DNA from: Lachnospiraceae bacterium
GTDB taxonomy: Bacteria > Bacillota > Clostridia > Lachnospirales > Lachnospiraceae
Assembly: GCA_024684215.1 (NCBI GenBank)
Contig: JAIKXH010000161.1
Coordinates: 7,789 to 71,788, forward strand
DNA length: 64,000 bases
Direction of reading: 5' to 3'
Below, in pieces: positions 1 to 19,175 of this stretch. The notes under the pieces are model-generated. The model ran no database searches, was not told where the DNA came from, and saw only the letters and a list, made by a program, of their open reading frames with translations. A program made the position numbers and the translations under genes. Each line of letters opens with the position of its first letter. Position 1 is the stretch's first letter.

Positions 1-55
1 TCACAGCTATTCGCCGTATATACAGCATCCTGCATGCGATGCGGTTATCCCTGCT

Positions 56-811
56 TTATATTACATAATAGGTACCGTCTTCGTCGGAAAATCTCTTAAC
101 CCCTACCCCGAAAACCTGCTCAATAATTCTTTTTTCTATAATTTCATCAGAGCTTCCTTTAAAGACAATCCGCCGATTATCCATAACCAAAATCTCATCT
201 GATATTTCGAGAGCGCGGGCTATATCATGCAGTACAAGAATCACAGTCTTACCTTCGTCACGCATTTTTCTGTACAAGTTAAGCATTTTCCTCTGCCCGG
301 GAATATCGAGATATGTAGTCGGCTCATCAGCCACCATATATTCACATTCCTGTGCAAGGGAAAGCGCGAAAAAACTCCTTTGCCTTGTTCCGCCTGACAA
401 TACCTCAACAGACATGTTCTCATATTTTTTTACATCTGCTAAATCCATAGCATGTTCAACTGCCCTTTTATCCTCTATGGTCATACTCCTTGCAAAACCC
501 AAATAAGGAAACCTTCCGTGAGAGACCAATAAAGCAGTTGAAATATCCGGTATCGTATTCCTTACCTGAGGGAGAAATGAAAGTGTCCTTCCTCTTTTTT
601 TAGGGCTGAAATTAAGGTAGTTTTCACCGTCTATATAAATATTTCCTTTTTCTACACGCGCGGATCCGTTTAGAGCGCTTAAAAGACTGGTTTTACCGCA
701 TCCGTTCGGACCTATGATCGAAGTGAGTTTTCCTTTCTGAAAGCTTACATTTATATCGGACAGAATTCTCTCCCCTCCGGCACTTATAGTTACATTTTCA
801 TACTTAAGCAT
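56..811 (-). CDS. ABC transporter ATP-binding protein, iron-chelate/corrinoid (FecE/BtuD-like) type
   Basis: 251-aa ORF with Walker A GPNGCGKTS, signature LSGGTRQR and Walker B MVADEPTTYLD. Its start overlaps the upstream FecCD permease stop by 8 nt. Confidence 0.9.
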   Translation of the reverse strand: MLKYENVTISAGGERILSDINVSFQKGKLTSIIGPNGCGKTSLLSALNGSARVEKGNIYIDGENYLNFSPKKRGRTLSFLPQVRNTIPDISTALLVSHGRFPYLGFARSMTIEDKRAVEHAMDLADVKKYENMSVEVLSGGTRQRSFFALSLAQECEYMVADEPTTYLDIPGQRKMLNLYRKMRDEGKTVILVLHDIARALEISDEILVMDNRRIVFKGSSDEIIEKRIIEQVFGVGVKRFSDEDGTYYVI

Positions 812-1835
812 GGATCCTGCGGCCCCCTTTCTTTCTAATCAAAAGGTAAATAAAGAAAGGACCTCCGATAAAGGACATGATAATACCCGTTGGCAACTCG
901 TATGGGGAAAACAATATACGGCTCAGCAAATCACACATGATCACAAAGCTGCCCCCTAAAAGCGCACTGCAAGGTATAAGGAATCTCGCATCGTTTCCGA
1001 AAAACCTCCTGCAAATATGCGGTACTATCAGTCCCGCAAAGCTTAAAAGCCCTGCATAGCTTACAACGCAGCCGGCAAGCACACTCGCTATAACAAGAAG
1101 AATGAACCTGACAGCGCTAACCCTCATTCCAAGAGATGTGGCAACTCCTTCTCCAAGACCCAGCATGTTTAAGTGCTTCGAAAAAAGTATTGCCAACATT
1201 AAACCAACGGTTATCCCGATTCCCGGGAGCCATACTGACCCAAAAGTCACTCCGCTTAAATTGCCCATCAGAAATGAATTTATATTTATAATAATATCGG
1301 TATTAAGCGTTTTAATCAGATTTATCCCGGCAGACAAAAAGCTTGAAACAGTAATACCTGCAAGAATGATAGTAACTCTCGATGTGTTTGAAAAATATGC
1401 CAGAGCAAAAATAAGTAAAGTTGCTATCAGCGCACCGGCAAAAGCAAATACAGGAATAGCCCAGGTCACTCCCGGAAGCATGAGCATAGAGAGCATTACG
1501 CAAAAACCTGCGCCGCTTCCAACACCGATTGTGTTTGGGCCTGCGAGCACATTGTTCATAACTCCCTGCAGCAACACCCCGGCCACCGATAGTCCGACTC
1601 CCGCAAGCAGTCCGCCAACAACTCTCGGCAATCTGATACTCCTAACAATAATAACTGTTTTTAACGGTAACGAATCAGATGCAAAGCGATCTCCCCCATA
1701 AATTATGGCTTTGAAAATCTCCTTTGGACTGATTCTCACACTTCCAAGTGATAAACATAAAACAAAACATATAAAAAGGAGTACAAATAGAGCAATTATT
1801 GTTACTGCCTTGTTTTTTAAGTGTATCTTGCTCAT
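804..1835 (-). CDS. FecCD-family ABC permease (iron-chelate/corrinoid/heme type)
   Basis: 343-aa polytopic ORF with FecCD/BtuC-like Gly-rich TM helices (RLPRVVGGLLAGVGLSVAGVLLQG). It lies between a BtuF-type SBP gene and the cognate ATPase gene. Confidence 0.9.
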   Translation of the reverse strand: MSKIHLKNKAVTIIALFVLLFICFVLCLSLGSVRISPKEIFKAIIYGGDRFASDSLPLKTVIIVRSIRLPRVVGGLLAGVGLSVAGVLLQGVMNNVLAGPNTIGVGSGAGFCVMLSMLMLPGVTWAIPVFAFAGALIATLLIFALAYFSNTSRVTIILAGITVSSFLSAGINLIKTLNTDIIININSFLMGNLSGVTFGSVWLPGIGITVGLMLAILFSKHLNMLGLGEGVATSLGMRVSAVRFILLVIASVLAGCVVSYAGLLSFAGLIVPHICRRFFGNDARFLIPCSALLGGSFVIMCDLLSRILFSPYELPTGIIMSFIGGPFFIYLLIRKKGGRRIHA

Positions 1836-1857
1836 CTGTACTCCTTTTTTAACATTG

Positions 1858-2466
1858 TTACATCGACTCTATGAGATCTTCCAGTTCACCGTCCGTCAGA
1901 CCTCTTCCGAGCCTCAGGCATTCATCACCCGCCTGCTTTAATACCTTATGACGTAAGGATTGATCTGTAATCTTTTCTTTAACATATCCCCTTATGCCGT
2001 TAAGATAATCCAAAATCTCTTCGATATTCTCAGGTATAATTCTTTCAAGTTCCTTACGCAGTTTAACAGCGACTTGCGGGCTGGCCCCGGAGCTGGTTAT
2101 GCCTGCCACCAGATCTCCTCTCCTTATAACCGATGGAAATATAAAATCACACAAATCCTTATTGTCCACAACGTTTATAGGTACTTTTTTCTTTCTGCAT
2201 ATTTCAAATATCTTTTCGTTCAGGGATCTGTTATCGGTTGCTGCAATGCAATAATCAGCCTCATTTGCATCCTTTGGAATAAACTCTCTTTTTATACATT
2301 TTATGGAGCTGTTATCACTTATTTCCGGAAGGATTTCTGGAGCGATCACACATAAATTCGCATCAAACTGTGACAGCACGTTAACCTTTTCAAGGGCTAT
2401 CCTGCCCCCTCCGATAATCACTCCTCTTTTCCCTTTTAATTCAAAACAAAATGGAAAGTATGCCAT
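1858..2466 (-). CDS. precorrin-2 dehydrogenase / sirohydrochlorin ferrochelatase (siroheme synthase N-domain, SirC/Met8-like)
   Basis: 202-aa ORF with the N-terminal Rossmann motif VIIGGGRIALEKV and the length typical of the CysG N-domain family. A siroheme-type reductase is encoded in the same operon. Confidence 0.8.
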   Translation of the reverse strand: MAYFPFCFELKGKRGVIIGGGRIALEKVNVLSQFDANLCVIAPEILPEISDNSSIKCIKREFIPKDANEADYCIAATDNRSLNEKIFEICRKKKVPINVVDNKDLCDFIFPSVIRRGDLVAGITSSGASPQVAVKLRKELERIIPENIEEILDYLNGIRGYVKEKITDQSLRHKVLKQAGDECLRLGRGLTDGELEDLIESM

Positions 2467-2469
2467 TGG

Positions 2470-3561
2470 TTATTCTCCGAAAATGTAATTGGCAAGTTTC
2501 TCATAGGCCTCACCCCAACGGGCATTGGGCTTGGAATTATACAATTCCTTTTCAATCTCAAAATATCTTCCGGACTTTACCGCAGTCAGTTCACTCCAAG
2601 CGGGATTACTGCTAAAAAGCTCCGCTACATTTGCCAAAGCAGCTTCCGTATCTTCACCCTGAGTGGTTACAAAAATGTAATCAGGATCTGCTGCCACTAT
2701 CGCTTCAAGACTTATGTCCTCAAGCAAACCCTCGTCACTGTCTGCTATATTTATAAGGCCAAGATCTGCAAGTATCTCGCCTCCAACGGTTCCTTTACTT
2801 CCCTTAGCTTTAACCGAGCTTGCTGCCGCCCTTATAAACAGAACTGTAGGTGCCTCTCCTTCAACTGCCTTTATCTCATCTATTTCCTTTTTTGCTCTTT
2901 GCCTTACCGCCTCTATAGAGTCAGCTACATCTTCTCCATACTTTTTATAACTATCACTGTTTCCGGTTATCTGTGTAAACGTCTCAAGTACTCCAAGATA
3001 ATCTTCAAACTTCGAAACCTCAAAATAAGCTGTGGTTATTCCGCTATTTTCAAATACATCCAAAAGTTCAACCTGAGAAGATGTTCCCGCGCTTGCTATA
3101 ATAAAATCAGGTTCGGCGTCAAAAAGCTTTTCCAGATCGGGCTCTAAAAAGCTTCCGACATTAACAACATCCTCGGAAAGGTTTAAATCAAATGATGTCC
3201 AGGCATCCTTTACGGTAGCCGATACCTCTCCGCCGGCCAATACCCATACATCGGCAAAGCTTCCGAGAAGTACCGCCACCCTCTTTGGTGAATCTACAGT
3301 TACTTCTCGCGAAAGAGCGTCTACAAAAGTCACAGGAGATGACGCTTCTGTTTCATAGTTTTCTGTTTCATCAGCGTCTTTTTCGTAGGCATCCATTTCG
3401 TATGCTTCTGTTTCATCAGCTTCATTTTCGTACGCATCTATCTCATAAGCTTGCGCTTGTGTACTTACCGGCTCGGGGTCCTTACTGTCATTTTTCGAGC
3501 ATCCGGCCAATGTAAATAACGTGGTTGCGATTAAAGTCAGTGTTAAAATCTTTTTTTTCAT
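2470..3561 (-). CDS. ABC substrate-binding lipoprotein, BtuF/FhuD (Peripla_BP_2) type, with acidic repeat linker
   Basis: 363-aa ORF with signal peptide plus lipobox TLAGCS. A Y/E/D/A-rich repeat linker is followed by a class III SBP-like body (KRVAVLLGSFADVWVLAGG). Confidence 0.85.
   Translation of the reverse strand: MKKKILTLTLIATTLFTLAGCSKNDSKDPEPVSTQAQAYEIDAYENEADETEAYEMDAYEKDADETENYETEASSPVTFVDALSREVTVDSPKRVAVLLGSFADVWVLAGGEVSATVKDAWTSFDLNLSEDVVNVGSFLEPDLEKLFDAEPDFIIASAGTSSQVELLDVFENSGITTAYFEVSKFEDYLGVLETFTQITGNSDSYKKYGEDVADSIEAVRQRAKKEIDEIKAVEGEAPTVLFIRAAASSVKAKGSKGTVGGEILADLGLINIADSDEGLLEDISLEAIVAADPDYIFVTTQGEDTEAALANVAELFSSNPAWSELTAVKSGRYFEIEKELYNSKPNARWGEAYEKLANYIFGE
3343..3450 (-). 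repeat. in-frame degenerate tandem repeat encoding an acidic (A/Y/E/D/T) linker
   Basis: The DNA motif ttctgtttcatcagc recurs three times. It encodes AYEIDAYENEADETEAYEMDAYEKDADETENYETEA directly after the lipobox of the SBP. Confidence 0.7.
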
Positions 3562-3569
3562 AATACTTT

Positions 3570-4016
3570 CTAAAAATAATATTCCTTAGCGATAATTCTT
3601 AAATCCTCCTTAGTCACTTCCCCTTTTTCAACATGAAAAGAGTTAAGAACAGGATTTTTTGCCATAAGCGAGAGAATCATATAACTCGCATTTTTGTCAA
3701 ATGAGAGCCTGATATCTTCCTGCGACGGCCTGGAAGGCGACTCAGGATGAGAATGCCAATTTCCAAGCAGCTTATAACCGTTGGTTCTCATGTCCTTTAC
3801 AGCCTCGAGCTGTTCTTTTGGGTCTAAAGTAAAATGATCGGTCGCGTGATCAGTATTTGTCAGATAATAAATCTTTTCAATCAATCTTCCGCCATCATCT
3901 TCGCTTCCCGCAATGAGGCCGCAGGCCTCTTCCGGCATATGCGACTTTGCATACTCCACCATTTCGTCATACAGGTGATAATCAATTCTGACAATTCCCA
4001 TCATATTTCCTTTCAA
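3570..4016 (-). CDS. JAMM/MPN+ (Mov34) zinc metalloprotease
   Basis: 148-aa ORF with the complete JAMM motif: EEACG, then HSHPESPSRPSQED (H-x-H-x7-S-x2-D). It lies 6 nt downstream of the E1 gene. Confidence 0.85.
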   Translation of the reverse strand: MKGNMMGIVRIDYHLYDEMVEYAKSHMPEEACGLIAGSEDDGGRLIEKIYYLTNTDHATDHFTLDPKEQLEAVKDMRTNGYKLLGNWHSHPESPSRPSQEDIRLSFDKNASYMILSLMAKNPVLNSFHVEKGEVTKEDLRIIAKEYYF

Positions 4017-4022
4017 AACAAC

Positions 4023-4847
4023 TTAATGTCCTCCCGGTTTAAATTCACATGCTGCCTGCTCATAATCGATAGGTTCTAATATGGTCGGATTGTCTCCGCA
4101 CACAGGACATGCATGAGTGTCAGCGGGGAGCTTAATCTTGTGGAACTCCATAGTAAGTGCATCATATGTCAGAAGATATCCTGTCAAAAGATCTCCGACT
4201 CCTATGATATACTTTACCGCCTCCATAGCCTGAAGACTTCCTATGACACCACCCATCGCTCCAATTACACCAGCCTGTTTGCAGGTGGGTACAGCATCCT
4301 TTGGCGGCGGGTTCTTAAATACGCATCGATAGCACGGGCCCTTACCGGGAACATAGGTCATGAGCTGACCTTTAAATCTTATGATCCCCGCGTGTGAAAA
4401 TGGCTTTTTCTCTATTACGCAGGCGTCATTTATCAAAAACTTCGCAGGAAAATTATCCGTTCCGTCTATTATAAAATCATAATCCCTGATAAGCTCTCGT
4501 ATGTTGCTTGAATCAACAAACATATGATACATTTTGACCTCAACATCGGGATTCATTGCATTCATAGTTTCTTTTGCCGACTCTACCTTGGGCTTGCCTA
4601 CATCTGCTGTGCCGTGGATTATCTGTCTTTGCAGGTTTGACAGATCAACCTCATCGGCATCAACAATGCCAATGGTTCCCACACCTGCAGCTGCAAGATA
4701 CATTGCTGCCGGAGCTCCAAGGCCGCCGGCTCCTATGATTAGCACCTTTGCGCTAAGAAGCTTTTTTTGTCCTTTTGCACCCACTTCCTTAAGTATGATA
4801 TGTCTTGAATAGCGTTCAAGCTGTTCATCTGAAAGAGCCATCAGCAT
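4023..4847 (-). CDS. MoeB/ThiF/HesA-family E1-like adenylyltransferase
   Basis: 274-aa ORF with RYSRHI, nucleotide loop IIGAGGLGAP, zinc cysteines CYRC and CPVCG, and a conserved Cys in PTCKQAG. There is no rhodanese domain. Its start overlaps the carrier gene stop (ATGCTGATG). Confidence 0.9.
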   Translation of the reverse strand: MLMALSDEQLERYSRHIILKEVGAKGQKKLLSAKVLIIGAGGLGAPAAMYLAAAGVGTIGIVDADEVDLSNLQRQIIHGTADVGKPKVESAKETMNAMNPDVEVKMYHMFVDSSNIRELIRDYDFIIDGTDNFPAKFLINDACVIEKKPFSHAGIIRFKGQLMTYVPGKGPCYRCVFKNPPPKDAVPTCKQAGVIGAMGGVIGSLQAMEAVKYIIGVGDLLTGYLLTYDALTMEFHKIKLPADTHACPVCGDNPTILEPIDYEQAACEFKPGGH

Positions 4848-5047
4848 CCACCTCCCATAAAGTAAAGGAACTCAACATTATCCCCTTCCTTTAAAATAGT
4901 CGAAGCCTTCTTTTCCGTTTCCACAAATTCCTCATTTATCGATACGGTTACATATTCCGGCATCTCTACATTCTCTATTTCTATAAGTTCGGGAAGCGTA
5001 AGTCCGTTCTTATATTCTTTCTTTTCTCCCGCTACAGTAATAGTCAT
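4841..5047 (-). CDS. ThiS/MoaD-like ubiquitin-fold sulfur carrier protein with capped C-terminus (..MGGGC)
   Basis: 68-aa ORF with size and pattern typical of ThiS (..EGDNVEFLYFMGGG). It carries one extra C-terminal Cys after the Gly-Gly. It is translationally coupled to the E1 gene. Confidence 0.8.
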   Translation of the reverse strand: MTITVAGEKKEYKNGLTLPELIEIENVEMPEYVTVSINEEFVETEKKASTILKEGDNVEFLYFMGGGC

Positions 5048-5062
5048 TGTTTACCTCCAAAA

Positions 5063-5308
5063 TTAATCGCCAATTTTTTTAACATACAGCGTATATGTTC
5101 CGTCTTCATTGTCTTTTAGTTTTAATATCTGATGTCCCTCATCCTTAATTGAACGAGGCACATTTTGAACCGGCTCACCGTCATTCATTCTTATTGCAAG
5201 AATCTGACCTTCTTCAAGCTCATCCAAAGTTACCTTGGCTTTAACAAATGTTAGCGGGCAAACCTTGTCCGTTATATCCACTTCCTCATCAAATGCTATA
5301 TCTGACAT
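5063..5308 (-). CDS. TusA/SirA-like sulfurtransferase
   Basis: 81-aa ORF with the N-terminal conserved cysteine context DKVCPLTFVKAK typical of the TusA/SirA fold. It lies 2 nt downstream of the sulfite-reductase-like gene. Confidence 0.8.
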   Translation of the reverse strand: MSDIAFDEEVDITDKVCPLTFVKAKVTLDELEEGQILAIRMNDGEPVQNVPRSIKDEGHQILKLKDNEDGTYTLYVKKIGD

Positions 5309-5310
5309 GT

Positions 5311-6195
5311 TTATACTCCTTCATATGCTTTCTGAATCTGTTTTCGGAATTCCTCTTCTCCGACCCTTTGCAAAGTATGCCTGAATCTCTCACCCGGCTT
5401 AGCATTTTTATCAAAGAAATCTATTGTAGCATCAGCCACTCTAAAGAGTGTCTCTTTGTCCTTAATGATCGGAACGATCTGTTCTCCTTTGTATATCTGG
5501 TTTCCAAACAGACCACCGAATGAGACAATATATCCCGGAGTGTAGTCCCAAGCGTCAACCGGACAACTCTTAACGCATCTGCCGCAGTTGTTGCACTTGG
5601 ATTTATCTATTACGACCTTTCCGTCCTCCATTTTAAGTGCGCCTTCTCGGCACGCCTTGATGCACACTCCGCATGATATGCAGGTTTCCGGTTTATAATC
5701 GATAATATAACCGCCCTTTACTCCAAGATCGTTCTCTTCGCTCTTTAAGCAATTGTTCATACATCCGGTGACGCCGAATTTAAATTTATGAGGAAGCTCT
5801 CTTCCAAAGTATCTCTCATCAAACTCTTTAGCCAGTTCATATGAATCTATACAACCGCTTGGACATATCGCACTTCCCTGGCATGCGGTTACCGTCCTGA
5901 CTCTGGGTCCGCATACTCCGGGTTTTACTCCGCCTTCCGCGAGCTTACCTCTAACTTCTTCTATATCGCTAAACTCGATAAAGGGGATTTCCACGCCCTG
6001 CCTTGAAGTCATATGTACGTATCCGTGACCATACTTTTCCGCAACCTCGGCGATAGTCTTTATATTCTCGGCGGTAAGGTTTCCCCCGACAACAGCAAGT
6101 CTCAGAGAAAAATACCCCTTTTGCTTTTGCCTCATAAACCCGCCTTTTTTAAGTGATGAATAATCGATTGCATCTGACATTTTTATTTCCTCCAT
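5311..6195 (-). CDS. compact siroheme-type sulfite/nitrite reductase-like protein with inserted 2x[4Fe-4S] ferredoxin
   Basis: 294-aa ORF with the siroheme-[4Fe-4S] cysteine pattern CQGSAIC (CX5C) and CMNNC (CX3C). It also has two ferredoxin motifs, CISCGVCIKAC and CNNCGRCVKSCP. Confidence 0.8.
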   Translation of the reverse strand: MEEIKMSDAIDYSSLKKGGFMRQKQKGYFSLRLAVVGGNLTAENIKTIAEVAEKYGHGYVHMTSRQGVEIPFIEFSDIEEVRGKLAEGGVKPGVCGPRVRTVTACQGSAICPSGCIDSYELAKEFDERYFGRELPHKFKFGVTGCMNNCLKSEENDLGVKGGYIIDYKPETCISCGVCIKACREGALKMEDGKVVIDKSKCNNCGRCVKSCPVDAWDYTPGYIVSFGGLFGNQIYKGEQIVPIIKDKETLFRVADATIDFFDKNAKPGERFRHTLQRVGEEEFRKQIQKAYEGV

Positions 6196-6292
6196 ACATA
6201 GTCTTCATATCTTATATCCGATTTATATTTGTTTTCTTCTTTTTACCGGACCATCTTTGTTTGATTTCTTAGATCTCACTTAATGTCTTTTT

Positions 6293-7534
6293 CTATGAAT
6301 CCTCACTAAGCTTTACAAATGCTCTGTCAAAGTCTGCAATCAAATCTTCTACGTCCTCGATCCCAACACTGATTCTTATAAGGTCATCAAAAACTCCTGC
6401 AGCTTCTTTTTGTTTATCTGTAGAGTGTAATGAAATAGTTGACGCGGGATGGATGACTAATGTCTTGGTATCTCCGACATTGGACAATCTGTAGGCAAGT
6501 TCAAGCAGATTTAAAAGTTTATACGCCTTTTCCTTGCTTCCGACCCGTAGCGTAACTATCGCTCCGTATCCGCCATTTAGGATCTTTTTTGCTGTGTCAT
6601 GCCACTTACTTGATTCAAGTCCCGGAAAATTTACAATAACCGAAGGATACTTGTCGTGAATATGTTTAGCCAAAGCGGCTGCGTTTGCACATTGGCGTTC
6701 CATGCGCAGCCCCATCGTTTCAAGTCCTATTTGATTTAAATAAGCTGTCTGCGGCGCCATACAGGCTCCCGCATTTCTCTGAAGGCCTGCTCTCAATCTG
6801 GCAATATACGCAAACGGGCCGAATTTAATGTAGTCTTTAAGCATCGGGTACTTTTCAGCTGTCCACTTAAACTTACCACCATCGGTTAGCACTCCTCCTA
6901 TGGCATTACTGCTGCCATTTATGTATTTTGAAGTGGAATTTATGACAATATCCGCTCCGTGATCTAAGACTCTGACCAGATATGGAGTAGCTATAGTATT
7001 GTCAATAAACAATGGCAACCCGTGGCTGTGTGCTATCGCAGCAAGGCTATCAATGTCCGTAACATCAAGGCAAGGATTACCGATAGTCTCGGCGTATATT
7101 AGCTTTGTCCTCTCGTTTATCGCATCCTCAATCTCTTTTTTGTTATTGTTCTGAACATATCTCGTCTTTATTCCAAAATTCTCAAGATCTCTGAAAAGAT
7201 CTATCGTCCCCCCGTACAAAGATGCACTAGATACTATCTCGTCGCCTGACATAAGTATATTTGTCAAAGCGTTAAAAATCGCTGCCATACCGGATGCGGT
7301 TGCTACCGACCCGATTCCGCCCTCTAACTTGTTTATCCTGTTTTCGAATACCGCGATCGTCGGATTTTGAACCCTGGTGTAACAATACCCCGGATTTTTT
7401 CCTGCAAATATCCCTTCAAGGTCCTCCGCACTTTCTTGAAAAAAAGCACTTGTCTGATAAATCGGAGTTAGGGTTGAACCATATTTTTCTCTCTTATCCA
7501 CTCCATCATGAAGAAGAGCTGTGTTAAACTTCAT
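6293..7534 (-). CDS. metY: O-acetylhomoserine sulfhydrylase-type PLP enzyme (Cys/Met metabolism family)
   Basis: 413-aa ORF with N-terminal FNTALLH..TPIYQTSAF and the PLP-lysine context DIVINSTSKYINGS. Length and motifs are typical of MetY/MetZ-type enzymes. Confidence 0.85.
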   Translation of the reverse strand: MKFNTALLHDGVDKREKYGSTLTPIYQTSAFFQESAEDLEGIFAGKNPGYCYTRVQNPTIAVFENRINKLEGGIGSVATASGMAAIFNALTNILMSGDEIVSSASLYGGTIDLFRDLENFGIKTRYVQNNNKKEIEDAINERTKLIYAETIGNPCLDVTDIDSLAAIAHSHGLPLFIDNTIATPYLVRVLDHGADIVINSTSKYINGSSNAIGGVLTDGGKFKWTAEKYPMLKDYIKFGPFAYIARLRAGLQRNAGACMAPQTAYLNQIGLETMGLRMERQCANAAALAKHIHDKYPSVIVNFPGLESSKWHDTAKKILNGGYGAIVTLRVGSKEKAYKLLNLLELAYRLSNVGDTKTLVIHPASTISLHSTDKQKEAAGVFDDLIRISVGIEDVEDLIADFDRAFVKLSEDS

Positions 7535-7545
7535 GCTTTTGCTCC

Positions 7546-8319
7546 TTATATTGCATATTCCATTATGCTGTGGTTAAATTTGTTAACGATAGCATTTCTG
7601 TAAAAAGCAAAATCTTCGCTGCTTCTCAACCTCGGTCTCGGAAGTTCAATCGTTATGGTCTCGTCTACTTCAGAGGGTCTCGGTTTCATAACTACAACCC
7701 TGTCTCCAAGAAAAATTGCTTCGTCAATATCATGAGTAACCATGATCATTGTCGTTTTCTCTTCTTCTCTGATCCTGTCGATCTCTGTCTGCATATTCAT
7801 TCTTGTCAATGCATCCAAAGCTCCGAGCGGTTCATCCAAAAGAAGTATTCTCGGGTGTCTCATAAGTGCTCGGGCAATTGAAACTCTCTGTGCCATTCCA
7901 CCCGAGAGCTGCCCTGGATACACTTTTTCAAAGTTTTCCAGATCAACTTTCTTTAGATATTCGGCTGCCAGATTATGGAGTTCCTTTTTTGTCCCTTCCA
8001 AACCAATGGTTAAGTTTTCCTCAACACTAAGCCATGGAAGCAGTCTGTGTTCCTGGAATATCACACCTCTGTCAAGTCCGGCTTTTTCCACTCTTTTACC
8101 ATCCAGTAAAATATCTCCGCCATACTCTTTTTCAAGCCCTGCTATAAGCCTTAACAATGTTGTCTTTCCACATCCGCTGGCGCCGATGATCGATATAAAC
8201 TCGCCCTCATTAACGTTAAGGCTCACGTTTCTTATTGCCTCAACATCCTTATCTTTAGTATGGAATACTTTTGATACATTTTTAATTTCCAAAATAGTGT
8301 TTTGACTCATACGAATCAC
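7546..8319 (-). CDS. ABC transporter ATP-binding protein, nitrate/sulfonate/taurine (NitT/TauT) family
   Basis: 257-aa ORF with Walker A GASGCGKTT, signature LSGGMAQR and Walker B LLLDEPLGALD. The overall pattern resembles SsuB/TauB. Confidence 0.9.
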   Translation of the reverse strand: MIRMSQNTILEIKNVSKVFHTKDKDVEAIRNVSLNVNEGEFISIIGASGCGKTTLLRLIAGLEKEYGGDILLDGKRVEKAGLDRGVIFQEHRLLPWLSVEENLTIGLEGTKKELHNLAAEYLKKVDLENFEKVYPGQLSGGMAQRVSIARALMRHPRILLLDEPLGALDALTRMNMQTEIDRIREEEKTTMIMVTHDIDEAIFLGDRVVVMKPRPSEVDETITIELPRPRLRSSEDFAFYRNAIVNKFNHSIMEYAI

Positions 8320-8331
8320 CCTTTAGTTTCG

Positions 8332-9186
8332 TTATTTGGCAGTTTTCTTTTTCCATCTCAAAGTGCTTTCCTCGATCTTTCGAAGTATCACGTCGATCAC
8401 AACACCAATAACACCGATTACTACCATTAATGCAATAAGCTTATCCGACCACAAAAACTCACGCGACTTCATAAGTGCATATCCTAACCCCGTAAGTCCT
8501 CCGAGCATCTCCGCTGCCACTACAGCCATCCATGCGTTTCCTGCTCCCAGTCTCAATCCTGTAAATATTGATGACACCGCTGAGGGAAGTACAACCTTCC
8601 TAAGAAAAACTGCCTTTTTCAGTTCCAGGACTTCCGCAAGTTCGAAATAATCGGCCTGAACACCTTTTATTCCCTGAAGCGTATTTAGATATATGGGAAT
8701 AAGAACGCCTCTTGCTATAATGATTTCTTTTGATACCTCTCCTATGCCAAACCAGAGGATGATTATGGGCATCCATGCATATAGCGGGATTTGTCTTATA
8801 ACATTTATTATCGGTGAAAAAACTCTTTCAGCTACTTTGTTCAGCCCGGAAAACATTCCGAGTATAAGGGCGATACCGGCTCCCCAAAGGTAACCGATAA
8901 GCACCCTTTTCCCGCTTAAAACAAGATCGGCTCCGAGTGATCCGTCCTTTACCATTTCTACAAATGCCTTTACGACCTTTACAGGTGATGGAAGTATCAC
9001 TTCAAGAAGTAATCCCGATCCGGCAAGTATCTGCCATAGTGCCAACAATATAATCGGAACCGCAATGGTATTGAGTAATGCTAAAAGCCTTGGGCCAAAT
9101 TTATTACTGCCTATATCACCGGAGAGCTTTTTCAAAAAAGAATTCCTTTCGTTCTCATTTCCGGTTAATGTCAATTCTCTTGCCAT
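8332..9186 (-). CDS. ABC permease, NitT/TauT (SsuC/TauC-like) family
   Basis: 284-aa ORF with a six-TM BPD_transp_1 layout and an EAA-like loop (FELAEVLELKKAVFLRKVVLP). Confidence 0.85.
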   Translation of the reverse strand: MARELTLTGNENERNSFLKKLSGDIGSNKFGPRLLALLNTIAVPIILLALWQILAGSGLLLEVILPSPVKVVKAFVEMVKDGSLGADLVLSGKRVLIGYLWGAGIALILGMFSGLNKVAERVFSPIINVIRQIPLYAWMPIIILWFGIGEVSKEIIIARGVLIPIYLNTLQGIKGVQADYFELAEVLELKKAVFLRKVVLPSAVSSIFTGLRLGAGNAWMAVVAAEMLGGLTGLGYALMKSREFLWSDKLIALMVVIGVIGVVIDVILRKIEESTLRWKKKTAK

Positions 9187-9212
9187 ACTTCACGTTCCTC
9201 TGCCAAAAAAGT

Positions 9213-10382
9213 TTATTCAAAGAAATTGCTGTTAAAGAATTCCTGCTTATCTACTCTTCCTTCCTCAGTAAACTCCTCGGTGTTCTCAATAAGCCAATTC
9301 TGATAGTTATCGGTATCGTCTATAAGCTGTGACAAAGGTGCAGAGGCAGAGTAGAAGGTCTCCTTACTTCTGTCGTTGTACCAGGCTGTGTTTACAGCGG
9401 GATCTCTTGTAATGGTCTCTATAATCTGTGAAGTCTCCTCCGGATTCTGGATTATATAAGCATTTACAAGCTGTCTAAGCTTTAATACTGCCTTTAAGAT
9501 GTTTACATGGCTGTTTGCAAATTCCGTTGAAGAGAACGTTACCGATGCTCCACCGTAATTTGTATAAACGCCGTTTTCCTTAGCGTTCGCAATCTCACGG
9601 AAATTACCGGATATGATCTCGTTGTTAATATTTGCAAAAGGATGTACAGATATTGCATCTACCTCTCCTGCATCGAGAGCGGTCTTAATATCGCTGTTTG
9701 ATACATTTGCATAAGTCCAATCGGTTCCTTCTACCCATCCAAGGTCAATTGTCTGTTCAATAAGTGCTACGTACTGGCATCCTGCCTTCCAGCTGGCTAT
9801 GGTCTTTCCTTTGAGATCTTCAAGCTTTTGGTAATCGGAGTCCTTTCTGACAAGGATTGTAACTATACCGGGTGAAGGATCCTCAGAAAGCTCTACTGCT
9901 GTTACATCGCCACCCTGTGCTTTATATAGAAGATATGGATAGAGCATACGATTTGTCAGATGAAGCTCGTCTCTTTCCATCAGCTGAACCTCATTTCCGA
10001 CTGTTCCTTCCACTATGGCTACCGATGTGTTATTATCTCCCAAAAGTTTATCGAACCATCCGTTTTTGTCGGATATATACACCCATCCTCCTGAGCCCAG
10101 CTTTAAAGTATCCAGTTTTTCAAATTCGTACTTTTCTTTAAGCTTTGGAATCGCCGCGGTTATAACTCCGAGTGTTACCTTGTCAGATGAAGTTACATTT
10201 CTTTCAATGAGTTCTGCCGCAAGCGCCTCTTCCTCCGAATTGGGTGCTATTACCTCACTTACGATATCTGACTGATTTTTATCTCCTGTTTTCGCAGCTG
10301 TTTTTGCACCGCAGCCGGTAAGTAAAAGTGCCGAAGCAAAGCCGATTGCTGCTATTCGTGTAATAATTTCTTTGTTTTTCAT
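9213..10382 (-). CDS. ABC substrate-binding lipoprotein (NMT1/SsuA-like fold)
   Basis: 389-aa ORF with signal peptide and lipobox LLLTGCGAK. It lies directly upstream of the NitT/TauT permease and ATPase genes. Confidence 0.75.
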   Translation of the reverse strand: MKNKEIITRIAAIGFASALLLTGCGAKTAAKTGDKNQSDIVSEVIAPNSEEEALAAELIERNVTSSDKVTLGVITAAIPKLKEKYEFEKLDTLKLGSGGWVYISDKNGWFDKLLGDNNTSVAIVEGTVGNEVQLMERDELHLTNRMLYPYLLYKAQGGDVTAVELSEDPSPGIVTILVRKDSDYQKLEDLKGKTIASWKAGCQYVALIEQTIDLGWVEGTDWTYANVSNSDIKTALDAGEVDAISVHPFANINNEIISGNFREIANAKENGVYTNYGGASVTFSSTEFANSHVNILKAVLKLRQLVNAYIIQNPEETSQIIETITRDPAVNTAWYNDRSKETFYSASAPLSQLIDDTDNYQNWLIENTEEFTEEGRVDKQEFFNSNFFE

Positions 10383-10403
10383 AATGCTACTCCTTGTTTG
10401 CTA

Positions 10404-11414
10404 TTATTCTTCCTCATCCAATTCCTTAAGAGCTCTCTCCAAAAAGCTCTTGTCAGCCCATTTGCTAACGTCTACTACGGAATCTGTAAAACCATGCTCA
10501 TACAAAAATGTTGCTCTGGTTTGCAAAGACTCCAAGCCTTCACTTGAAAAATTAGGTTCCAACTGCTTATAAAAATCTGCCGGATATGCTCTCCTGTACT
10601 GCTCTACGCTTCCGTGTGTCTGCTCGGCCAACAAAGCCTCCGCTTCATCCTTATTATCTTTAGCCCATCTTGCAGCTCTTATTACCGCCTTTAAATACTC
10701 AATTACAACCTGAGGTTCTTCTTCTGCAAGCTTTCTGCTTACCGTTAAGACGTTCGGCCACTCGTTGTTTACGGGATCAACACTTTTTTGATCCGCTACC
10801 AGGTTAATGAGTTTTCTGTACTTTCCGCTTTCCAGGACTATCTCCGATGCCGAAAGCTTTACAAATACCGCATCGACTCTGCCCTCATCCAGTGCCTCAA
10901 AATCAAGTCCGGGCTTAAATGTCCATTTTGCCGTTCCATCGGGGAAGTCCGGCTTTTCATCAACAATAAACTTCCATTCGACGTCATCCTTTTTTAATCC
11001 CGCATACTCCAAAGCCACTTCAAATCCTTCGATCGTTGCGGTTTTTTGATGATCTATAGTAGCGTTTATTCTGTCGGGAATTCCGATTCTCTTACCTTTT
11101 AGATCTGCCACCGTCTTTATGTCCGAATCGGCTCTGACAACAATTGCCTGCTGCCCGGGGATAAGATTTATTCCGATCAAAACAGGTTCTGCGCCTCTGG
11201 ACTTTGCCCAGATAGGAGGAGTGTTTCCGCCTTCACGGAACAATCTGTCATTCTCGTATGTGAAATGTTCCTTCCAATGTTCCTTTGAAAGAGTTTGAAG
11301 CCTTACCGGAGTGTATCCGATTTTTTTGAGTCCCTCACTAAGAAAACCATGATTAGCTGCAATATATGATGCATTTGCAACAGGGCAAATTGTATAATTG
11401 AATTCTTTAGCCAT
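10404..11414 (-). CDS. cytoplasmic (leaderless) NMT1/THI5/SsuA-like SBP-fold protein
   Basis: 336-aa ORF with an SBP-like sequence (LKGKRIGIP.., VDAVFV..) but no signal peptide or lipobox (starts MAKEFNYTICPVANAS). It is the first gene of the operon, with a strong RBS (AAAAGGAGGA) upstream. Confidence 0.7.
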   Translation of the reverse strand: MAKEFNYTICPVANASYIAANHGFLSEGLKKIGYTPVRLQTLSKEHWKEHFTYENDRLFREGGNTPPIWAKSRGAEPVLIGINLIPGQQAIVVRADSDIKTVADLKGKRIGIPDRINATIDHQKTATIEGFEVALEYAGLKKDDVEWKFIVDEKPDFPDGTAKWTFKPGLDFEALDEGRVDAVFVKLSASEIVLESGKYRKLINLVADQKSVDPVNNEWPNVLTVSRKLAEEEPQVVIEYLKAVIRAARWAKDNKDEAEALLAEQTHGSVEQYRRAYPADFYKQLEPNFSSEGLESLQTRATFLYEHGFTDSVVDVSKWADKSFLERALKELDEEE

Positions 11415-11656
11415 ATGCTTGTCCTCCTTTTTAGTCTGAATCTAATCACTACGCAATTGCTGTTTGATTTGCTTTTTTGAAGATTAACATGCTATAGGTA
11501 TATCCGTCTAATACCTTAAAACTATCATCCATTATAAGTATTGCTTATCGCCATTACTCTGAATTTGCTAAAATATTTATATATCAAAAGAGGTAAAGCA
11601 TGGAACTTATATTGTTTTGGCCCCTTTATAAGCGTGCCCGTAAGTTAATTAGGCGC

Positions 11657-11685
11657 TTGCCGTACTATTTATTTTTGTATATAAT
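11657..11685 (+). promoter_or_regulatory. putative sigma-A promoter for tadA (TTGCCG-17-TATAAT)
   Basis: -35 TTGCCG at 11657-11662, a 17-nt spacer and -10 TATAAT at 11680-11685, about 22 nt upstream of the tadA ATG. Confidence 0.45.
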
Positions 11686-11707
11686 CTTTTTTTAGGAAAG
11701 GTATACG

Positions 11708-12211
11708 ATGACTAAATTAACTATTGATGAAAAATACATGAAAATGGCTATTAAACAGGCCGAGAAAGCCCGCGAACTCGGCGAGGTGCCCATCGGTTGC
11801 GTAATCGTATACGATGGAAAGGTGATCGGAAGAGGATATAACAGAAGAAATACAGACAAAAATACCCTTGCTCATGCAGAGATTACCGCTATCAATAAAG
11901 CCAGCAAGAAAATCGGTGACTGGCGCCTGGAAGATTGCACCCTCTACGTTACGCTGGAGCCTTGTCAGATGTGCTCCGGTGCTATTGTCCAGGCCCGCAT
12001 TCCAAAAGTGGTGATAGGTTGCGACAATCCTAAAGCAGGATGTGCCGGTTCTATCCTAAACATTCTAAATCACCCTGCTTTCAATCATCAGGTTGAAACC
12101 GTCAAAGGTGTACTCGAAGCTGAATGCAGCAAAATGCTGAAAGATTTTTTTTCTGATTTGAGAAAGCGACTGAAAACCGAGCGAGAAGAAAATAAAAAGT
12201 CCGGGCGCTAA
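11708..12211 (+). CDS. tadA: tRNA adenosine(34) deaminase
   Basis: 167-aa ORF with the CDA zinc motifs HAEITAI and PCQMCSGA. Confidence 0.9.
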   Translation: MTKLTIDEKYMKMAIKQAEKARELGEVPIGCVIVYDGKVIGRGYNRRNTDKNTLAHAEITAINKASKKIGDWRLEDCTLYVTLEPCQMCSGAIVQARIPKVVIGCDNPKAGCAGSILNILNHPAFNHQVETVKGVLEAECSKMLKDFFSDLRKRLKTEREENKKSGR

Positions 12212-12278
12212 ATTAAAAGTGCCGGACGTAAAAATTAAAATGTTCGACATATAATTTAAAGTACCGGACGTAAAATAT
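12195..12278. repeat. four degenerate tandem 21-22-bp units (consensus AAAAGTnCCGGaCGTAAAAaTT)
   Basis: The units read aaaagtccgggcgctaaatt / aaaagtgccggacgtaaaaatt / aaaatgttcgacatataattt / aaagtaccggacgtaaaatat. The first unit spans the tadA stop codon. Confidence 0.6.
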
Positions 12279-12301
12279 AAGTGATGAGGGGTTATAAAAT
12301 T

Positions 12302-13231
12302 ATGAAAAAAAGAATTTTATCGGTAATGCTAATACTCGTAATCATGTGTACTATGATTGCCGGCTGTGGCAGGAACAAGGCATCAACCATGCGTATTCTT
12401 CGCTATGAAGGAATCGTAAGACTTCAGGATAGCGGAAAGTACAAAAAGATTAAAGAGGAAATGAGACTCAAAAGCGGTAATTTGCTCTCTACCTATGTTT
12501 ATTCAAGCGCATGCGTCGGTTTGGACGATGAAAAGATTGTGACAATGGATCAAAACAGTGAAGCAGTCTTTAAGCAATCCGGAAAGAAACTTGAGATGGA
12601 TATGACAAAGGGAAGTATGTTCTTTGAGGTAAAGAAGCCTCTCGAAGAGGATGAAGCCTTTGAGATCACTACATCAACCATGATTGTCGGAATCCGAGGT
12701 ACTTCGGGTTATATAGAGATATTAGAGGATGGCAGTGAGAAGCTTATTGTAACCGATGGTTCTGTTCACGTTATTTTAACCAACCCTGTTACCGGAGAGG
12801 TAAAAGAGACTGACGTTAGTGCCGGTCAGGAATTACAGGTATACAGATTCGACGACAGAGAGATCGACAGTATAGATTTCAATCTCGTAGACGTATATAA
12901 TGATATATTCCCCACACTTGCCAGAAACTACATTCTTGAAAATGATGAACTTAAGGAAAAGATATCAGCGGATATCGGTGAGGATAAGCTTGATGAGATC
13001 CTTTGGGATGAAGAAATCGGTTATGAGCCTTCACCGAAATCATACGGATCATATGCAAGCTTGCAGGACGTTGTAACAGCTTTAGAGCAGCTTGAGATGG
13101 TACTCAGAATATCATCGTTTGCGTTAAACAGAGATGCAGAAGGTCTTGAGACATATCTTGAATCCAAGAGCGTTCCCGGGGCCGAATATATAACTGATTT
13201 TGGTATGAGAATCCTAAATTCGATTAAGTAA
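12302..13231 (+). CDS. FecR-domain-like lipoprotein of unknown function
   Basis: The ORF is open from GTG 12281. ATG 12302 (MKKRILSVML..IAGCGRN, lipobox) with GAGGGG upstream is the more likely start. The central region resembles a FecR beta-sandwich (..FEVKKPLEEDEAFEITTSTMIVGIRGTSGYI). Confidence 0.6.
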   Translation: MKKRILSVMLILVIMCTMIAGCGRNKASTMRILRYEGIVRLQDSGKYKKIKEEMRLKSGNLLSTYVYSSACVGLDDEKIVTMDQNSEAVFKQSGKKLEMDMTKGSMFFEVKKPLEEDEAFEITTSTMIVGIRGTSGYIEILEDGSEKLIVTDGSVHVILTNPVTGEVKETDVSAGQELQVYRFDDREIDSIDFNLVDVYNDIFPTLARNYILENDELKEKISADIGEDKLDEILWDEEIGYEPSPKSYGSYASLQDVVTALEQLEMVLRISSFALNRDAEGLETYLESKSVPGAEYITDFGMRILNSIK

Positions 13232-13305
13232 TATCCTGATTTGATATTGCAAAGCATGTGAGTAAGATTACCTTACTGAAAATAATACTTATCAACAACA
13301 CGCAA

Positions 13306-13345
13306 AAATGGCATGGGACAATAAATGTTCCATGCCATTTCTAAT
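13306..13345. terminator. bidirectional intrinsic terminator between convergent genes
   Basis: 11-bp stem aaatggcatgg / ccatgccattt (13306-13316 and 13330-13340), flanked by an A-run upstream and T-rich sequence downstream. It lies between the convergent 13231(+) and 13366(-) gene ends. Confidence 0.6.
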
Positions 13346-13365
13346 AAACAATGTCTTTGAATTAA

Positions 13366-14022
13366 TTAGTTTCCAAATACCTTAAGGTAATCCTTCTGGA
13401 ACTTCTCGATACCCTGATCGGTAAGAGGATGCTTGGTCATCTGCTCGATTACAGAGTAAGGAATGGTTGCAATGTCAGCGCCTGCAAGTGCACAGTCGGT
13501 AACATGGATAGGATTACGGATGGAAGCTGCGATAATCTCGGTCTCATATCCGTAGATAGCGAAGATATCAGCAATCTGTCTGATAAGCTCGATTCCGGGA
13601 GTTGAGATATCATCAAGTCTGCCAAGGAAAGGAGATACATAAGTAGCTCCCGCGTTTGCAGCAAGGATAGCCTGGTTAGCGGAAAAGATAAGAGTAACAT
13701 TAGTCTTGATTCCTTCTGCTGAAAGAACCTTAACAGCCTTAAGTCCTTCAACGGTCATAGGGATCTTAACTACCATGTTCTTGTGAAGCTTTGCAATCTC
13801 GCGGCCTTCCTTGATCATGCCTTCAGCATCAACAGTAGTAGCCTTTACCTCACCTGAGATAGGTCCGTCTACGATAGAAGCGATTTCCTTGAGGATCTCT
13901 TCCTGGGGACGTCCACCTTCTTTAGCGATAAGAGAAGGGTTTGTGGTAACTCCACAGATAACGCCCATGTCATTAGCTTTCTTGATCTCTTCGATCTTTC
14001 CGGTGTCAACGAAAATTTTCAT
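13366..14022 (-). CDS. fructose-6-phosphate aldolase / short transaldolase (TalC/Fsa family)
   Basis: 218-aa ORF starting [23 protein letters not shown], with a catalytic-Lys context VVKIPMT. This is the typical short transaldolase family. Confidence 0.85.
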
Positions 14023-14121
14023 GATACATCTCCTTCATTAATTTCAATATTGCGCGATGATTCGCGTTTATTTTTCAAGTACATCTCTCATAATAACCAA
14101 ACAATATTGCTTAGTCAAATT

Positions 14122-15618: not shown

Positions 15619-15703
15619 TTTATAATCCTCCTATTGTAAATACCTATTAAATCTTGTTATTTGTTTTTCACTTTTTGCTTAAAGATTATTTGCCCCGAAT
15701 CCT

Positions 15704-17372: not shown

Positions 17373-17430
17373 TATGTTGCCTCCGTAAAAATTGAAACTT
17401 ATATTTCTTTAGTATTTAAATTAGTCTTTA

Positions 17431-18870: not shown

Positions 18871-18910
18871 AAATATTTTCCATTATGTTTTTCAAATATT
18901 GAAAAATACA

Positions 18911-19156: not shown

Positions 19157-19175
19157 GATTCCCCACCGTTTTTAC

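Follow-up and report, generated by a model that had tools for sequence, protein, structure and literature searches.

The small open reading frame on the minus strand at 4841..5047 of the window – the whole 64,000-nucleotide stretch of Lachnospiraceae DNA analysed here – very probably encodes the pro-form of an HcyS-type sulfur carrier that serves a protein-thiocarboxylate homocysteine pathway and bears a variable, removable cap. The cassette around this Cys-capped carrier is a known and widespread homocysteine-making operon type that encodes its own predicted trimming protease. The cap residue, Cys68, is probably a tolerated, removable P1′ residue and not a chemically required one, and the capped tail is one state of an always-present, fast-evolving tail in the HcyS-type subfamily.

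The carrier, an E1 without rhodanese domain, a JAMM protease, a TusA-like protein, a sulfite reductase and a MetY-like enzyme adjoin one another on one strand, with further genes upstream and downstream:

1858..2466, minus strand: NAD_binding_7 protein, downstream of the cassette; PF13241, 101.8 bits
3570..4016, minus strand: JAMM/MPN+ metalloprotease (Prok-JAB), about 143–148 aa; PF14464, 81.6 bits
4023..4841, minus strand: E1-like adenylyltransferase of the ThiF/MoeB family, without rhodanese, 272 aa from the ATG at 4841..4839; PF00899, 295 bits
4841..5047, minus strand: ThiS-family sulfur carrier, probably HcyS-type, 68 aa, ATG start; PF02597 and TIGR01683
4851..4855, minus strand: GGAGG, putative Shine–Dalgarno sequence for the E1, inside the carrier's Gly65–Gly66 codons (ATG GGA GGT GGA)
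5063..5308, minus strand: TusA/SirA-like sulfurtransferase, 81 aa, with the CP motif cysteine; PF01206, 72.3 bits
5311..6195, minus strand: small siroheme-type sulfite reductase with an inserted 2x[4Fe-4S] ferredoxin, 294 aa; NIR_SIR, NIR_SIR_ferr and Fer4
6293..7534, minus strand: divergent MetY-like O-acetylhomoserine sulfhydrylase, 413 aa; Cys_Met_Meta_PP and TIGR01326
7546..11414, minus strand: ABC ATPase, permease and two NMT1/SsuA-like binding proteins, upstream of the cassette

The original prediction that the carrier frame ends in Gly–Gly–Gly–Cys is borne out: the C-terminus reads EFLYFMGGGC, with the cap codon at 4846..4844 and a TGA stop at 4843..4841. PF02597 matches at 44.8 bits (cut-off 22.5), aligning residues 5–67 with positions 3–76 of its 76, and TIGR01683 at 59.2 bits (cut-off 37.45); both profiles end at the last glycine, residue 67, so that exactly one residue lies past the profile end, and G66–G67 occupy the final two positions of PF02597 as the Gly–Gly motif. 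Among the 120 closest database homologues (82–100% identical), 107 end in FMGGGC and 11 in FMGGGQ. The mature end of Bacillus subtilis ThiS is likewise GGG.

In the E1, Cys170/173/245/248 (a CxxC pair of pairs) and Cys187 are invariant. The JAMM protein, whose start is uncertain (TTG at 4016 or ATG at 4004/4001), matches PDB 2KKS with E = 1.9e-38; its E...HxH...S..D motif is intact (EEACG and HSHPESPSRPSQED), and the E, H-S-H, S and D are invariant across 39 orthologues. The nearest NCBIfam model for the sulfite reductase is sulfite_red_C, under whose cut-off it falls. The MetY-like enzyme – presumed to be a thiocarboxylate-using homocysteine synthase – is the third TIGR01326 paralogue of the genome and the only one below the cut-off (452 bits against 495). 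The ABC genes presumably import sulfur compounds, and the NAD_binding_7 protein, with the fold of the siroheme synthase N-terminal domain (SirC/Met8), probably supplies siroheme to the sulfite reductase. In an Rfam scan of 1..20000, nothing reached gathering score, riboswitches included.

The carrier is the only ThiS-family gene found in the genome, which is 92% complete. Elsewhere, the genome encodes a homoserine O-acyltransferase, two canonical MetY enzymes and three CysK enzymes, the last on other contigs. CysM-type (PALP) synthase and rhodanese-fused MoeZ partners are absent from the cluster, which has a MetY-type enzyme and a rhodanese-less E1 instead; as its PLP enzyme is of MetY type, the expected product is homocysteine and not cysteine.

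The same gene order recurs in 80 species-level loci, our set of relatives, drawn from at least 588 matching species genomes. Near the carrier, TusA is found in 67 of 72 loci, MetY in 57 and the sulfite reductase in 55, and a JAMM gene directly follows the E1 in 70; of the two without it, one (L017) is a truncated cassette followed by an opposite-strand PfkB gene, and the other (L057) has MetY after the E1 and then the contig end. This near-constant adjacency, the intact catalytic motif and the lack of a JAMM gene beside uncapped relatives agree with the earlier proposal that the neighbouring JAMM is the processing enzyme, and we predict for it both cap removal and product release. The operon type was described by Iyer et al. 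2006 (Table 1, row 4e; PMC1779556), who list Geobacter metallireducens, Wolinella succinogenes and several Clostridia; the row's neighbours – SirA/TusA, sulfite reductase and O-acetylhomoserine sulfhydrylase – are all present around the carrier in the window.

Homology, gene context and published systems together suggest, for every step, how such a cassette might work. The JAMM protease would cut the Gly67–Cys68 peptide bond to expose ...MGGG-COOH, and the rhodanese-less E1 would adenylate Gly67. Sulfide from the small sulfite reductase, possibly passed on by TusA, would turn the adenylate into a thiocarboxylate, which the MetY-like enzyme would add to O-acylhomoserine; an S-to-N acyl shift would follow, and the JAMM, acting a second time, would hydrolyse the carrier–Gly–homocysteine, letting homocysteine out and recycling the carrier. 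Structure prediction gives a slight hint of a JAMM–carrier complex: the pair scores 0.38 (best control 0.03), with at least 85% of contacts agreeing between runs and a partner pLDDT of at least 82. Of 80 solved complexes, 58 reach the mark used, as do 2 of 110 mismatched pairs, yet those that do so with a score of 0.60 or less are only 7 of the 80 and both mismatches; moreover, as related JAMM–Ubl complexes have already been solved, the predictor may have passed the pair by recalling them.

The carrier and E1 genes meet at the minus-strand junction GGA TGC TGA TGG, which holds two ATG codons in the E1 frame, at 4847..4845 and 4841..4839. It had been proposed that the carrier stop and the E1 start overlap and that translation is coupled; the coupled layout stands, but the E1 start does not lie where the longest frame would place it. 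The E1 N-terminus of 77 relatives, M-A-[FLM]-T-[ND]-E-Q-x-E-RYS, corresponds to the second ATG here (MALSDEQLERYSRH), so the overlap is 1 nt (TGATG) and not the 8 nt of the longest open reading frame. The first ATG, which arises only when the last Gly codon GGA meets a TGY cap codon, was rejected as the E1 start, since the conserved N-terminus begins at the second. The GGAGG lies 9 nt upstream of the ATG at 4841, with the cap codon and the stop supplying the spacing. It is found within the Gly codons at 60 of the 61 coupled loci (E1 ATG 2–8 nt past the last Gly codon) and at 8 of the 19 with a spacer and Shine–Dalgarno sequence of their own (Fisher p = 8e-8, for loci that are not phylogenetically independent). 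A 1-nt overlap of E1 ATG and carrier stop is seen at 47 of 81 loci, the window included. This arrangement supports the view that the two genes are built for coupled translation. With a ribosome-binding sequence written in conserved Gly codons and some tails doubling as an out-of-frame E1 start, gene overlap would here shape a protein terminus.

Behind the invariant EFLYFMGGG, the tail is constant in presence and fluid in sequence. At least one residue follows the GGG at 80 of 80 related loci, and 83 of the 85 cluster representatives carry a tail; the two uncapped ones have no E1 or JAMM among their neighbours. The usual single-residue caps are Cys (23 loci), Gln (13) and Arg (10), Cys being the commonest at 23 of 49 single caps, and AR, SL and longer tails also occur. 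On a 77-row tree, the first cap residue changes at least 35 times, a rate equal to that of the most variable carrier columns, with at least 13 gains or losses of Cys. Cys alternates with Gln and Arg between near-identical proteins in both Fibrobacter and Pseudobutyrivibrio. In one Fibrobacter pair (L037 and L048), the caps are Cys and Gln and all three codon positions differ; a local hot spot or recombination patch was considered and rejected, since over 1.4 kb the two loci share only about 88% DNA identity and differ at many synonymous sites, and ordinary divergence accounts for the cap difference. Cysteine after the glycines, expected to be conserved if the original prediction held, is therefore common but not required, alternating with Gln, Arg, Ala-x, Ser-x and longer tails. 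The converse expectation – random or missing residues, as from an artefact – fits in that the residues vary and fails in that the tail is always there, which speaks against an artefact.

Only tentatively do we hold the conjecture that selection maintains the tail as an obligatory pro-peptide throughout the HcyS-type subfamily; no carrier could then be activated without the recycling protease, and the allowed P1′ set would report a homocysteine-shaped S1′ pocket of the JAMM enzyme. No loss of the tail is seen in at least 35 sequence turnovers, though a single base change would turn most cap codons into a stop; for the lack of nonsense losses, a crude estimate gives P ~0.013, the argument for selection on cap presence being itself crude and the loci related by descent. 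The P1′ residues seen are C, Q, R, K, M, A and S, with D, P, V, L and H missing from short tails; branched residues occur once each, and Gly once, in a longer tail. If the conjecture is true, protease-dependent activation would be a checkpoint against charging carriers that cannot be recycled, and the natural cap variants would form a ready-made specificity library.

Other explanations of the cap can be weighed against the same data. It might have no function at the protein level and be a by-product of gene packing that sets the distance between Shine–Dalgarno sequence and ATG, tolerated because a product-releasing JAMM is present. This reading, which we consider unlikely, accounts for the one-residue cap at 42 of the 47 loci with a 1-nt overlap, for the placement of GGAGG within Gly codons and for nine loci whose tails of 3–6 residues (such as SHGFNR, SYGIDE and CHGIDR) arise simply where the carrier frame reads on into E1 coding sequence; at a given codon, mutation also favours stop loss over stop gain. 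It does not explain why tails of 1–10 residues persist at every one of the 19 loci that have a separate spacer and a Shine–Dalgarno sequence to themselves, nor why uncapped carriers number 0 of 80 although the cap codons (TGC/TGT, CAG/CAA, CGA, AGA, AAG) are one base from stops, when a stop at the cap codon would alter neither the Shine–Dalgarno sequence nor the ATG. Less probable again is that the terminal Cys was specifically selected as a mimic of a carrier–Cys or carrier–Hcy adduct, with Cys as the favoured cap. The Cys share among caps, both at the related loci and in the closest homologues, is far above that usual in proteins, Cys is gained or lost repeatedly on the tree, the nearly always unbranched single caps (C, Q, R, K, F, M, A) would fit a homocysteine-shaped pocket, and carrier–GG–Cys is chemically identical to the Mec+ substrate. 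However, the Fibrobacter and Pseudobutyrivibrio swaps with Gln and Arg, together with the alternation with other residues and tails, make a Cys-specific adaptation unlikely; a free α-carboxylate at P1′ is not needed, given how common tails of 2–10 residues (AR, SL, AF, SHGFNR and others) are; and since C, R and Q codons lie one base apart (TGC–CGC, CGA–CAA), drift among permitted residues accounts for the pattern. The expected product, moreover, is homocysteine. The built-in product mimic of the original prediction is thus improbable, Cys not being conserved.

Still less credible is a retained, chemically active Cys – for example, a persulfide swinging arm – on a carrier that works without a Gly thiocarboxylate. 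A flexible GGG–Cys tail beside a TusA-type persulfide protein is chemically conceivable, but Gln, Arg, Phe or Lys takes the place of the Cys in close orthologues from the same operon, E1 adenylation requires a free Gly carboxylate (as established for ThiS, MoaD and CysO), and the JAMM gene co-occurs at nearly every locus. At the very bottom of the scale stands an ordinary thiamin ThiS whose extra codon would be down to an error of annotation or sequencing. The database name ‘sulfur carrier protein ThiS’ and the TIGR01683 score above cut-off point that way; against it, no full-length ThiG was found in the 92%-complete genome – only two short partial matches, covering 42 and 97 of 247 profile positions at 23.2 and 18.3 bits – the carrier has no thi genes nearby, and the operon is one of sulfur assimilation with MetY. 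A thiamin-pathway ThiS was rejected for want of a full-length ThiG in that genome, and a sequencing artefact because more than 100 independent homologous sequences share the C-terminus and because one study holds two further samples whose contigs, one of them possibly the window's own source, match 4630..5242 without differences. The reading that we prefer therefore remains a pro-form carrier with a variable, removable cap.

The closest counterpart is found in W. succinogenes, where a single protease, HcyD, is said to mature the carrier and release homocysteine, a dual use of JAMM reportedly already known from that organism. The HcyS-Ala/HcyD/HcyF/Sir/MetY methionine pathway was reportedly established biochemically by Krishnamoorthy & Begley 2011 (JACS 133:379). 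Its existence is confirmed (PMC8191291, PMC5764234), and its MetY uses a carrier-protein thiocarboxylate (PMC8191291). Both systems have a ThiS-like carrier with a post-Gly residue (predicted to be removable here), a separate rhodanese-less E1, and JAMM, sulfite reductase and MetY in the cluster, and both belong to operon class row 4e. They differ in the cap (Cys here, Ala there), in the small, 294-aa sulfite reductase here and in the host, here a rumen or gut Lachnospiraceae; the window also has sulfonate-type ABC uptake genes, whereas row 4e operons have sulfate-activation genes (PMC1779556). The MetY-like enzyme is no closer to the W. succinogenes MetY structure 3RI6 (286 bits) than to other MetY enzymes (374 bits against Thermotoga maritima MetY). 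W. succinogenes HcyS is not among the Ala-capped cluster representatives, which come from Sutterella or metagenomes, and the link to it is indirect, through the G. metallireducens protein 2K5P, both organisms being listed in row 4e. That protein, annotated ‘ThiS’ (PDB 2K5P/3CWI), ends in EFLYFMGGGK and matches the subfamily profile with E = 2e-24, which makes it a Lys-capped member of the carrier subfamily with a solved structure. Both 2K5P and 2KKS are structural-genomics entries, named thiamine-biosynthesis protein and uncharacterized protein, respectively.

In Mycobacterium tuberculosis, the JAMM enzyme Mec+ hydrolyses CysO–Cys, a carrier–Gly–Gly–Cys amide, and the bond it attacks is the one that the encoded cap presents here. 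CysO itself is encoded uncapped; its system makes cysteine via CysM, with a rhodanese E1 (MoeZR) and another carrier subfamily. As far as described in the GapMind 2026 account (PMC13759103) of Hasebe et al. 2024, the Streptomyces MetO/Mec/MoeZ/MetM route likewise leads from carrier thiocarboxylate to homocysteine, its JAMM – a ‘[MetO]-L-cysteine hydrolase’ – being needed for maturation of the MetO terminus; by the same account, it relies on a threonine-synthase-like MetM, O-phosphohomoserine and a rhodanese MoeZ E1, as opposed to the MetY-type enzyme, rhodanese-less E1 and TusA found here. Capped carriers that need a JAMM protease are also known as QbsE (GG-CF, with QbsD), PtmS3 (GG-C), PtmS2 (GG-MV, with PtmS1) and CxnE (GG plus 10 aa, with CxnF). 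In these, as predicted here, post-GG residues are cut by a clustered JAMM before adenylation, although they come from other carrier subfamilies and serve the formation of siderophore or antibiotic thioacids, for the most part together with MoeZ-type E1s. Caps with Cys, as the single residue of PtmS3 or at P1′ in the GG-CF of QbsE, are thus already published (PMC6006322, PMC5925218), as is the ‘[MetO]-L-cysteine hydrolase’. Eukaryotic ubiquitin, SUMO and NEDD8 precursors share the β-grasp fold and the removal of post-Gly–Gly residues by a dedicated protease ahead of E1, but they modify proteins and are matured, in most cases, by cysteine proteases, in contrast to a metabolic sulfur carrier and a predicted metalloprotease.

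None of these findings overturns current understanding. Their weight lies in a carrier subfamily that is encoded by at least 588 species genomes, mostly of rumen and gut anaerobes, and goes by the label ‘ThiS, thiamine biosynthesis’ in databases, the PDB (2K5P) included, while in the 80 loci examined the carrier usually lies within a thiocarboxylate-dependent homocysteine cassette. An always-present tail, its fast turnover and the co-occurrence of JAMM provide a genomic rule that separates capped carriers from those of ThiS, MoaD and TtuB type, and the caps offer enzymology a natural panel of P1′ variants. The right annotation alters the reconstruction of methionine and sulfur metabolism for gut and rumen communities.

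The carrier is a 68-aa minus-strand ORF (4841..5047) with the C-terminus EFLYFMGGGC, followed by TGA. Its matches to Pfam ThiS (44.8 bits) and to NCBIfam TIGR01683 (59.2 bits) both reach the profile end at residue 67, so exactly one residue – Cys68 – is encoded past the mature Gly–Gly end, in keeping with the original observation of a terminal Cys after GGG. The triple-Gly mature end has a precedent in Bacillus subtilis ThiS (1TYG chain B), which ends FVGGG in the same alignment columns. A sequence artefact was rejected: among the 120 closest database homologues, 107 end in FMGGGC and 11 in FMGGGQ, and 4630..5242 is matched without difference by contigs of two further samples (from the same study, one possibly the source of the window).

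The carrier is one of ten minus-strand genes running from 11414 down to 3570:

Minus strand: two NMT1/SsuA-like binding proteins, a permease and an ABC ATPase, the first genes of the run
10404..11414, minus strand: within this group, the first gene of the operon, with an NMT1/SsuA-like binding-protein fold
Minus strand: Cys_Met_Meta_PP enzyme of the MetY type, 413 aa
Minus strand: NIR_SIR sulfite-reductase module with two 4Fe-4S motifs, 294 aa
Minus strand: TusA, 81 aa, between the sulfite-reductase module and the carrier
4841..5047, minus strand: the carrier
Minus strand: ThiF/MoeB E1 without a rhodanese domain, after the carrier
Minus strand: Prok-JAB (JAMM) protease, last of the ten

Further downstream lies a NAD_binding_7 protein with the fold of the siroheme synthase N-terminal domain. 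In the 293-nt leader upstream of the first gene (11415..11707, minus strand), no Rfam family reached the gathering score, SAM and T-box elements included.

In the window's genome (92% complete), the carrier is the only ThiS-family gene above the cut-off and no full-length ThiG was found; a thiamin-gene identity, despite the database names, was therefore rejected. Elsewhere this genome encodes a homoserine O-acyltransferase, three CysK and two canonical MetY enzymes, the MetY-like gene of the cluster being a third, divergent paralogue that scores below the TIGR01326 cut-off. One canonical MetY (628 bits) directly adjoins a CysK (454 bits; G000:C164:8344-10547), so the organism also has ordinary free-sulfide routes, to which the carrier cassette adds another.

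A whole-library HMMER search yielded 698 cluster representatives, and those having the motif share a near-fixed EFLYFMGGG end; 83 of 85 short-tailed representatives carry 1–8 residues after GGG, beginning with A (22), Q (17), C (13), S (12), R (8), M (3) or N (3). A one-genome-per-species scan found FLY[FY]MGGG carriers in at least 588 genomes, and 80 loci were kept, from Lachnospiraceae, Oscillospiraceae, Treponema, Fibrobacter, Kiritimatiellae, Collinsella and Ruminobacter, mostly rumen or gut MAGs. The recurrent gene order in these is MetY, sulfite reductase, TusA, (thioredoxin), carrier, E1, JAMM, with TusA near the carrier in 67 of the 72 loci extending far enough.

Many related cassettes have a gap of ~340 nt between TusA and carrier, filled in both loci inspected (L010:5640-5957, plus strand; L017:5516-5959) by a thioredoxin gene (PF00085, CxxC), which may serve to reduce TusA or E1 persulfides in organisms that have it; the window's cassette has no thioredoxin, and 15 nt separate the TusA end from the carrier. 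A few kb upstream of one rhodanese-less cassette (L038:1278-3175, plus strand) stand a second JAMM gene and a 485-aa E1–rhodanese fusion (MoeZ-like), and thus two carrier-activating systems side by side; L064, L066, L070, L079, L083 and L085 are arranged similarly. Cassettes labelled Parabacteroides, Bacteroidaceae or Bacteroides (L010, L011, L014, L012, L083) share 82–90% identity with those of Lachnospiraceae and fall within them on the tree; contamination during MAG binning is the probable cause, recent transfer the alternative.

A tail is present on 80 of 80 carriers examined. Single-residue tails are C (23), Q (13), R (10), F (2) and K (1), two-residue tails are AR, SL, MC, AF, AY, AS, ER, QR, SR, SI, CR and CC, and the longest have ten residues. 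Both uncapped cluster representatives occur in contexts other than the homocysteine cassette, so that, in this sample, the tail goes with JAMM. One (…FMGGG, from a Wujia sp. MAG) is followed directly by the gene for a 279-aa PP-loop ATPase (ATP_bind_3), and the two (L089:5001-6046, plus strand) resemble a TtuB/TtuA-type pair for tRNA thiolation more than a homocysteine cassette; the second representative has neither E1 nor JAMM among its neighbours. A single base change turns any of the common cap codons (TGC/TGT, CAG/CAA, CGA, AGA, AAG) into a stop, which would spare both the Shine–Dalgarno (SD) sequence and the ATG of the E1. No uncapped form was seen among the 80 loci, where, on a crude estimate, 4.4 nonsense events would be expected beside 35 accepted changes (P(0) ~0.013); this absence is suggestive, though not decisive, that tail presence matters.

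The identity of the capping residue is another matter. On a 77-row tree of carrier plus E1, at least 36 cap-class and at least 35 first-residue changes are needed, state C changing at least 13 times; the first cap residue keeps pace with the most variable columns of the carrier, while the nine residues before it are invariant, eight of them being fixed by the retrieval pattern. Near-identical proteins in Fibrobacter and in Pseudobutyrivibrio differ by a C, Q or R cap, and since the underlying DNA is 77–88% identical with many synonymous changes, ordinary divergence of a codon under weak constraint accounts for these differences. Single steps connect the three (TGC–CGC, the synonymous CGC–CGA, CGA–CAA). 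Cys occurs at the cap far above its usual share among residues. Judged from these sequences, it is frequent yet dispensable, which argues against thiol-dependent chemistry; the residue after the glycines is not conserved as Cys among relatives, and the special weight placed on it exceeded what the evidence allows.

The E1 N-terminus reads M-A-[FLM]-T-[ND]-E-Q-x-E-R-Y-S in 77 relatives, placing the window's start at ATG 4841..4839 (MALSDEQLERYS), whose A doubles as the final base of the carrier TGA; the exact ATG had been misassigned, and the upstream ATG at 4847 is present only where TGY comes after GGA. The 81 junctions (80 related loci and the window) divide as follows:

47 loci: 1-nt overlap (TAATG or TGATG)
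5 loci: stop and start abutting
9 loci: E1 ATG within the carrier tail
19 loci: spacer of at least 15 nt, own SD
1 locus: E1 start not found

In the nine ATG-in-tail loci, the tails SHGFNR, SYGIDE, CHGIDR, SVGIN and SHGIY arise where the carrier frame reads through the E1 start out of frame. The M-G-G-G codons (ATG GGA GGN GGN) contain GGAGG in 60 of 61 close-packed versus 8 of 19 spacer loci (Fisher p = 8e-8, uncorrected for phylogeny), the latter mostly using GGC; a one-codon cap gives 9-nt SD-to-ATG spacing. Overlap and motif together make the proposed coupled translation of carrier and E1 well supported at the sequence level, with the SD written in the carrier's conserved glycines. However, tails are kept in 19 of 19 spacer loci, so the cap cannot be put down to gene packing alone.

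That the JAMM protein would be the carrier-processing enzyme, as originally interpreted, agrees with its position directly after E1 in 70 of the 72 loci extending far enough and with its motif (EEACG and HSHPESPSRPSQED), whose E, H-S-H, S and D do not vary among 39 orthologues; among solved structures, 2KKS is the closest to this protein (E = 1.9e-38). The E1 has invariant cysteines at 170/173/245/248 and 187. The predicted JAMM–carrier complex (score 0.38, best control 0.03; at least 85% of contacts agreeing between runs; partner pLDDT at least 82) weakly favours this pairing, but may reflect likeness only, related JAMM–Ubl complexes being already solved. Of 80 solved complexes, 58 reached the score mark, as did 2 of 110 mismatched pairs; those that did so at 0.60 or under comprise only 7 of the 80, and both mismatches.

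Krishnamoorthy and Begley reportedly reconstituted the Wolinella succinogenes system in 2011; there, the terminal Ala of HcyS is said to be removed by HcyD, which later hydrolyses HcyS–homocysteine. W. succinogenes MetY uses the carrier thiocarboxylate (PMC8191291), and row 4e of Table 1 in Iyer et al. 2006 (PMC1779556) lists this operon type in Geobacter metallireducens, W. succinogenes and several Clostridia. The G. metallireducens carrier (2K5P, 3CWI) ends EFLYFMGGGK, i.e. with a Lys cap; given the operon context, the names of these structures (‘thiamine-biosynthesis protein ThiS’) and of 2KKS (‘uncharacterized protein’) look outdated. A Cys at the first position past GG is published for QbsE (GG-CF), and a single Cys cap for PtmS3, in a paper noting that capped carriers typically need a JAMM protease. 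CysO-Cys is hydrolysed by Mec+, and in the Streptomyces homocysteine route a "[MetO]-L-cysteine hydrolase" matures MetO (GapMind 2026); the idea of one protease for carrier maturation and product release is already in the literature.

What seems to go beyond the published accounts consulted is that the tail is always present in this subfamily yet turns over fast, that it is tied to JAMM, and that the SD lies in Gly codons, some tails being an out-of-frame E1 start. These additions are modest; their main use lies in annotation, the subfamily being currently named ThiS, and in the enzymology of JAMM specificity.
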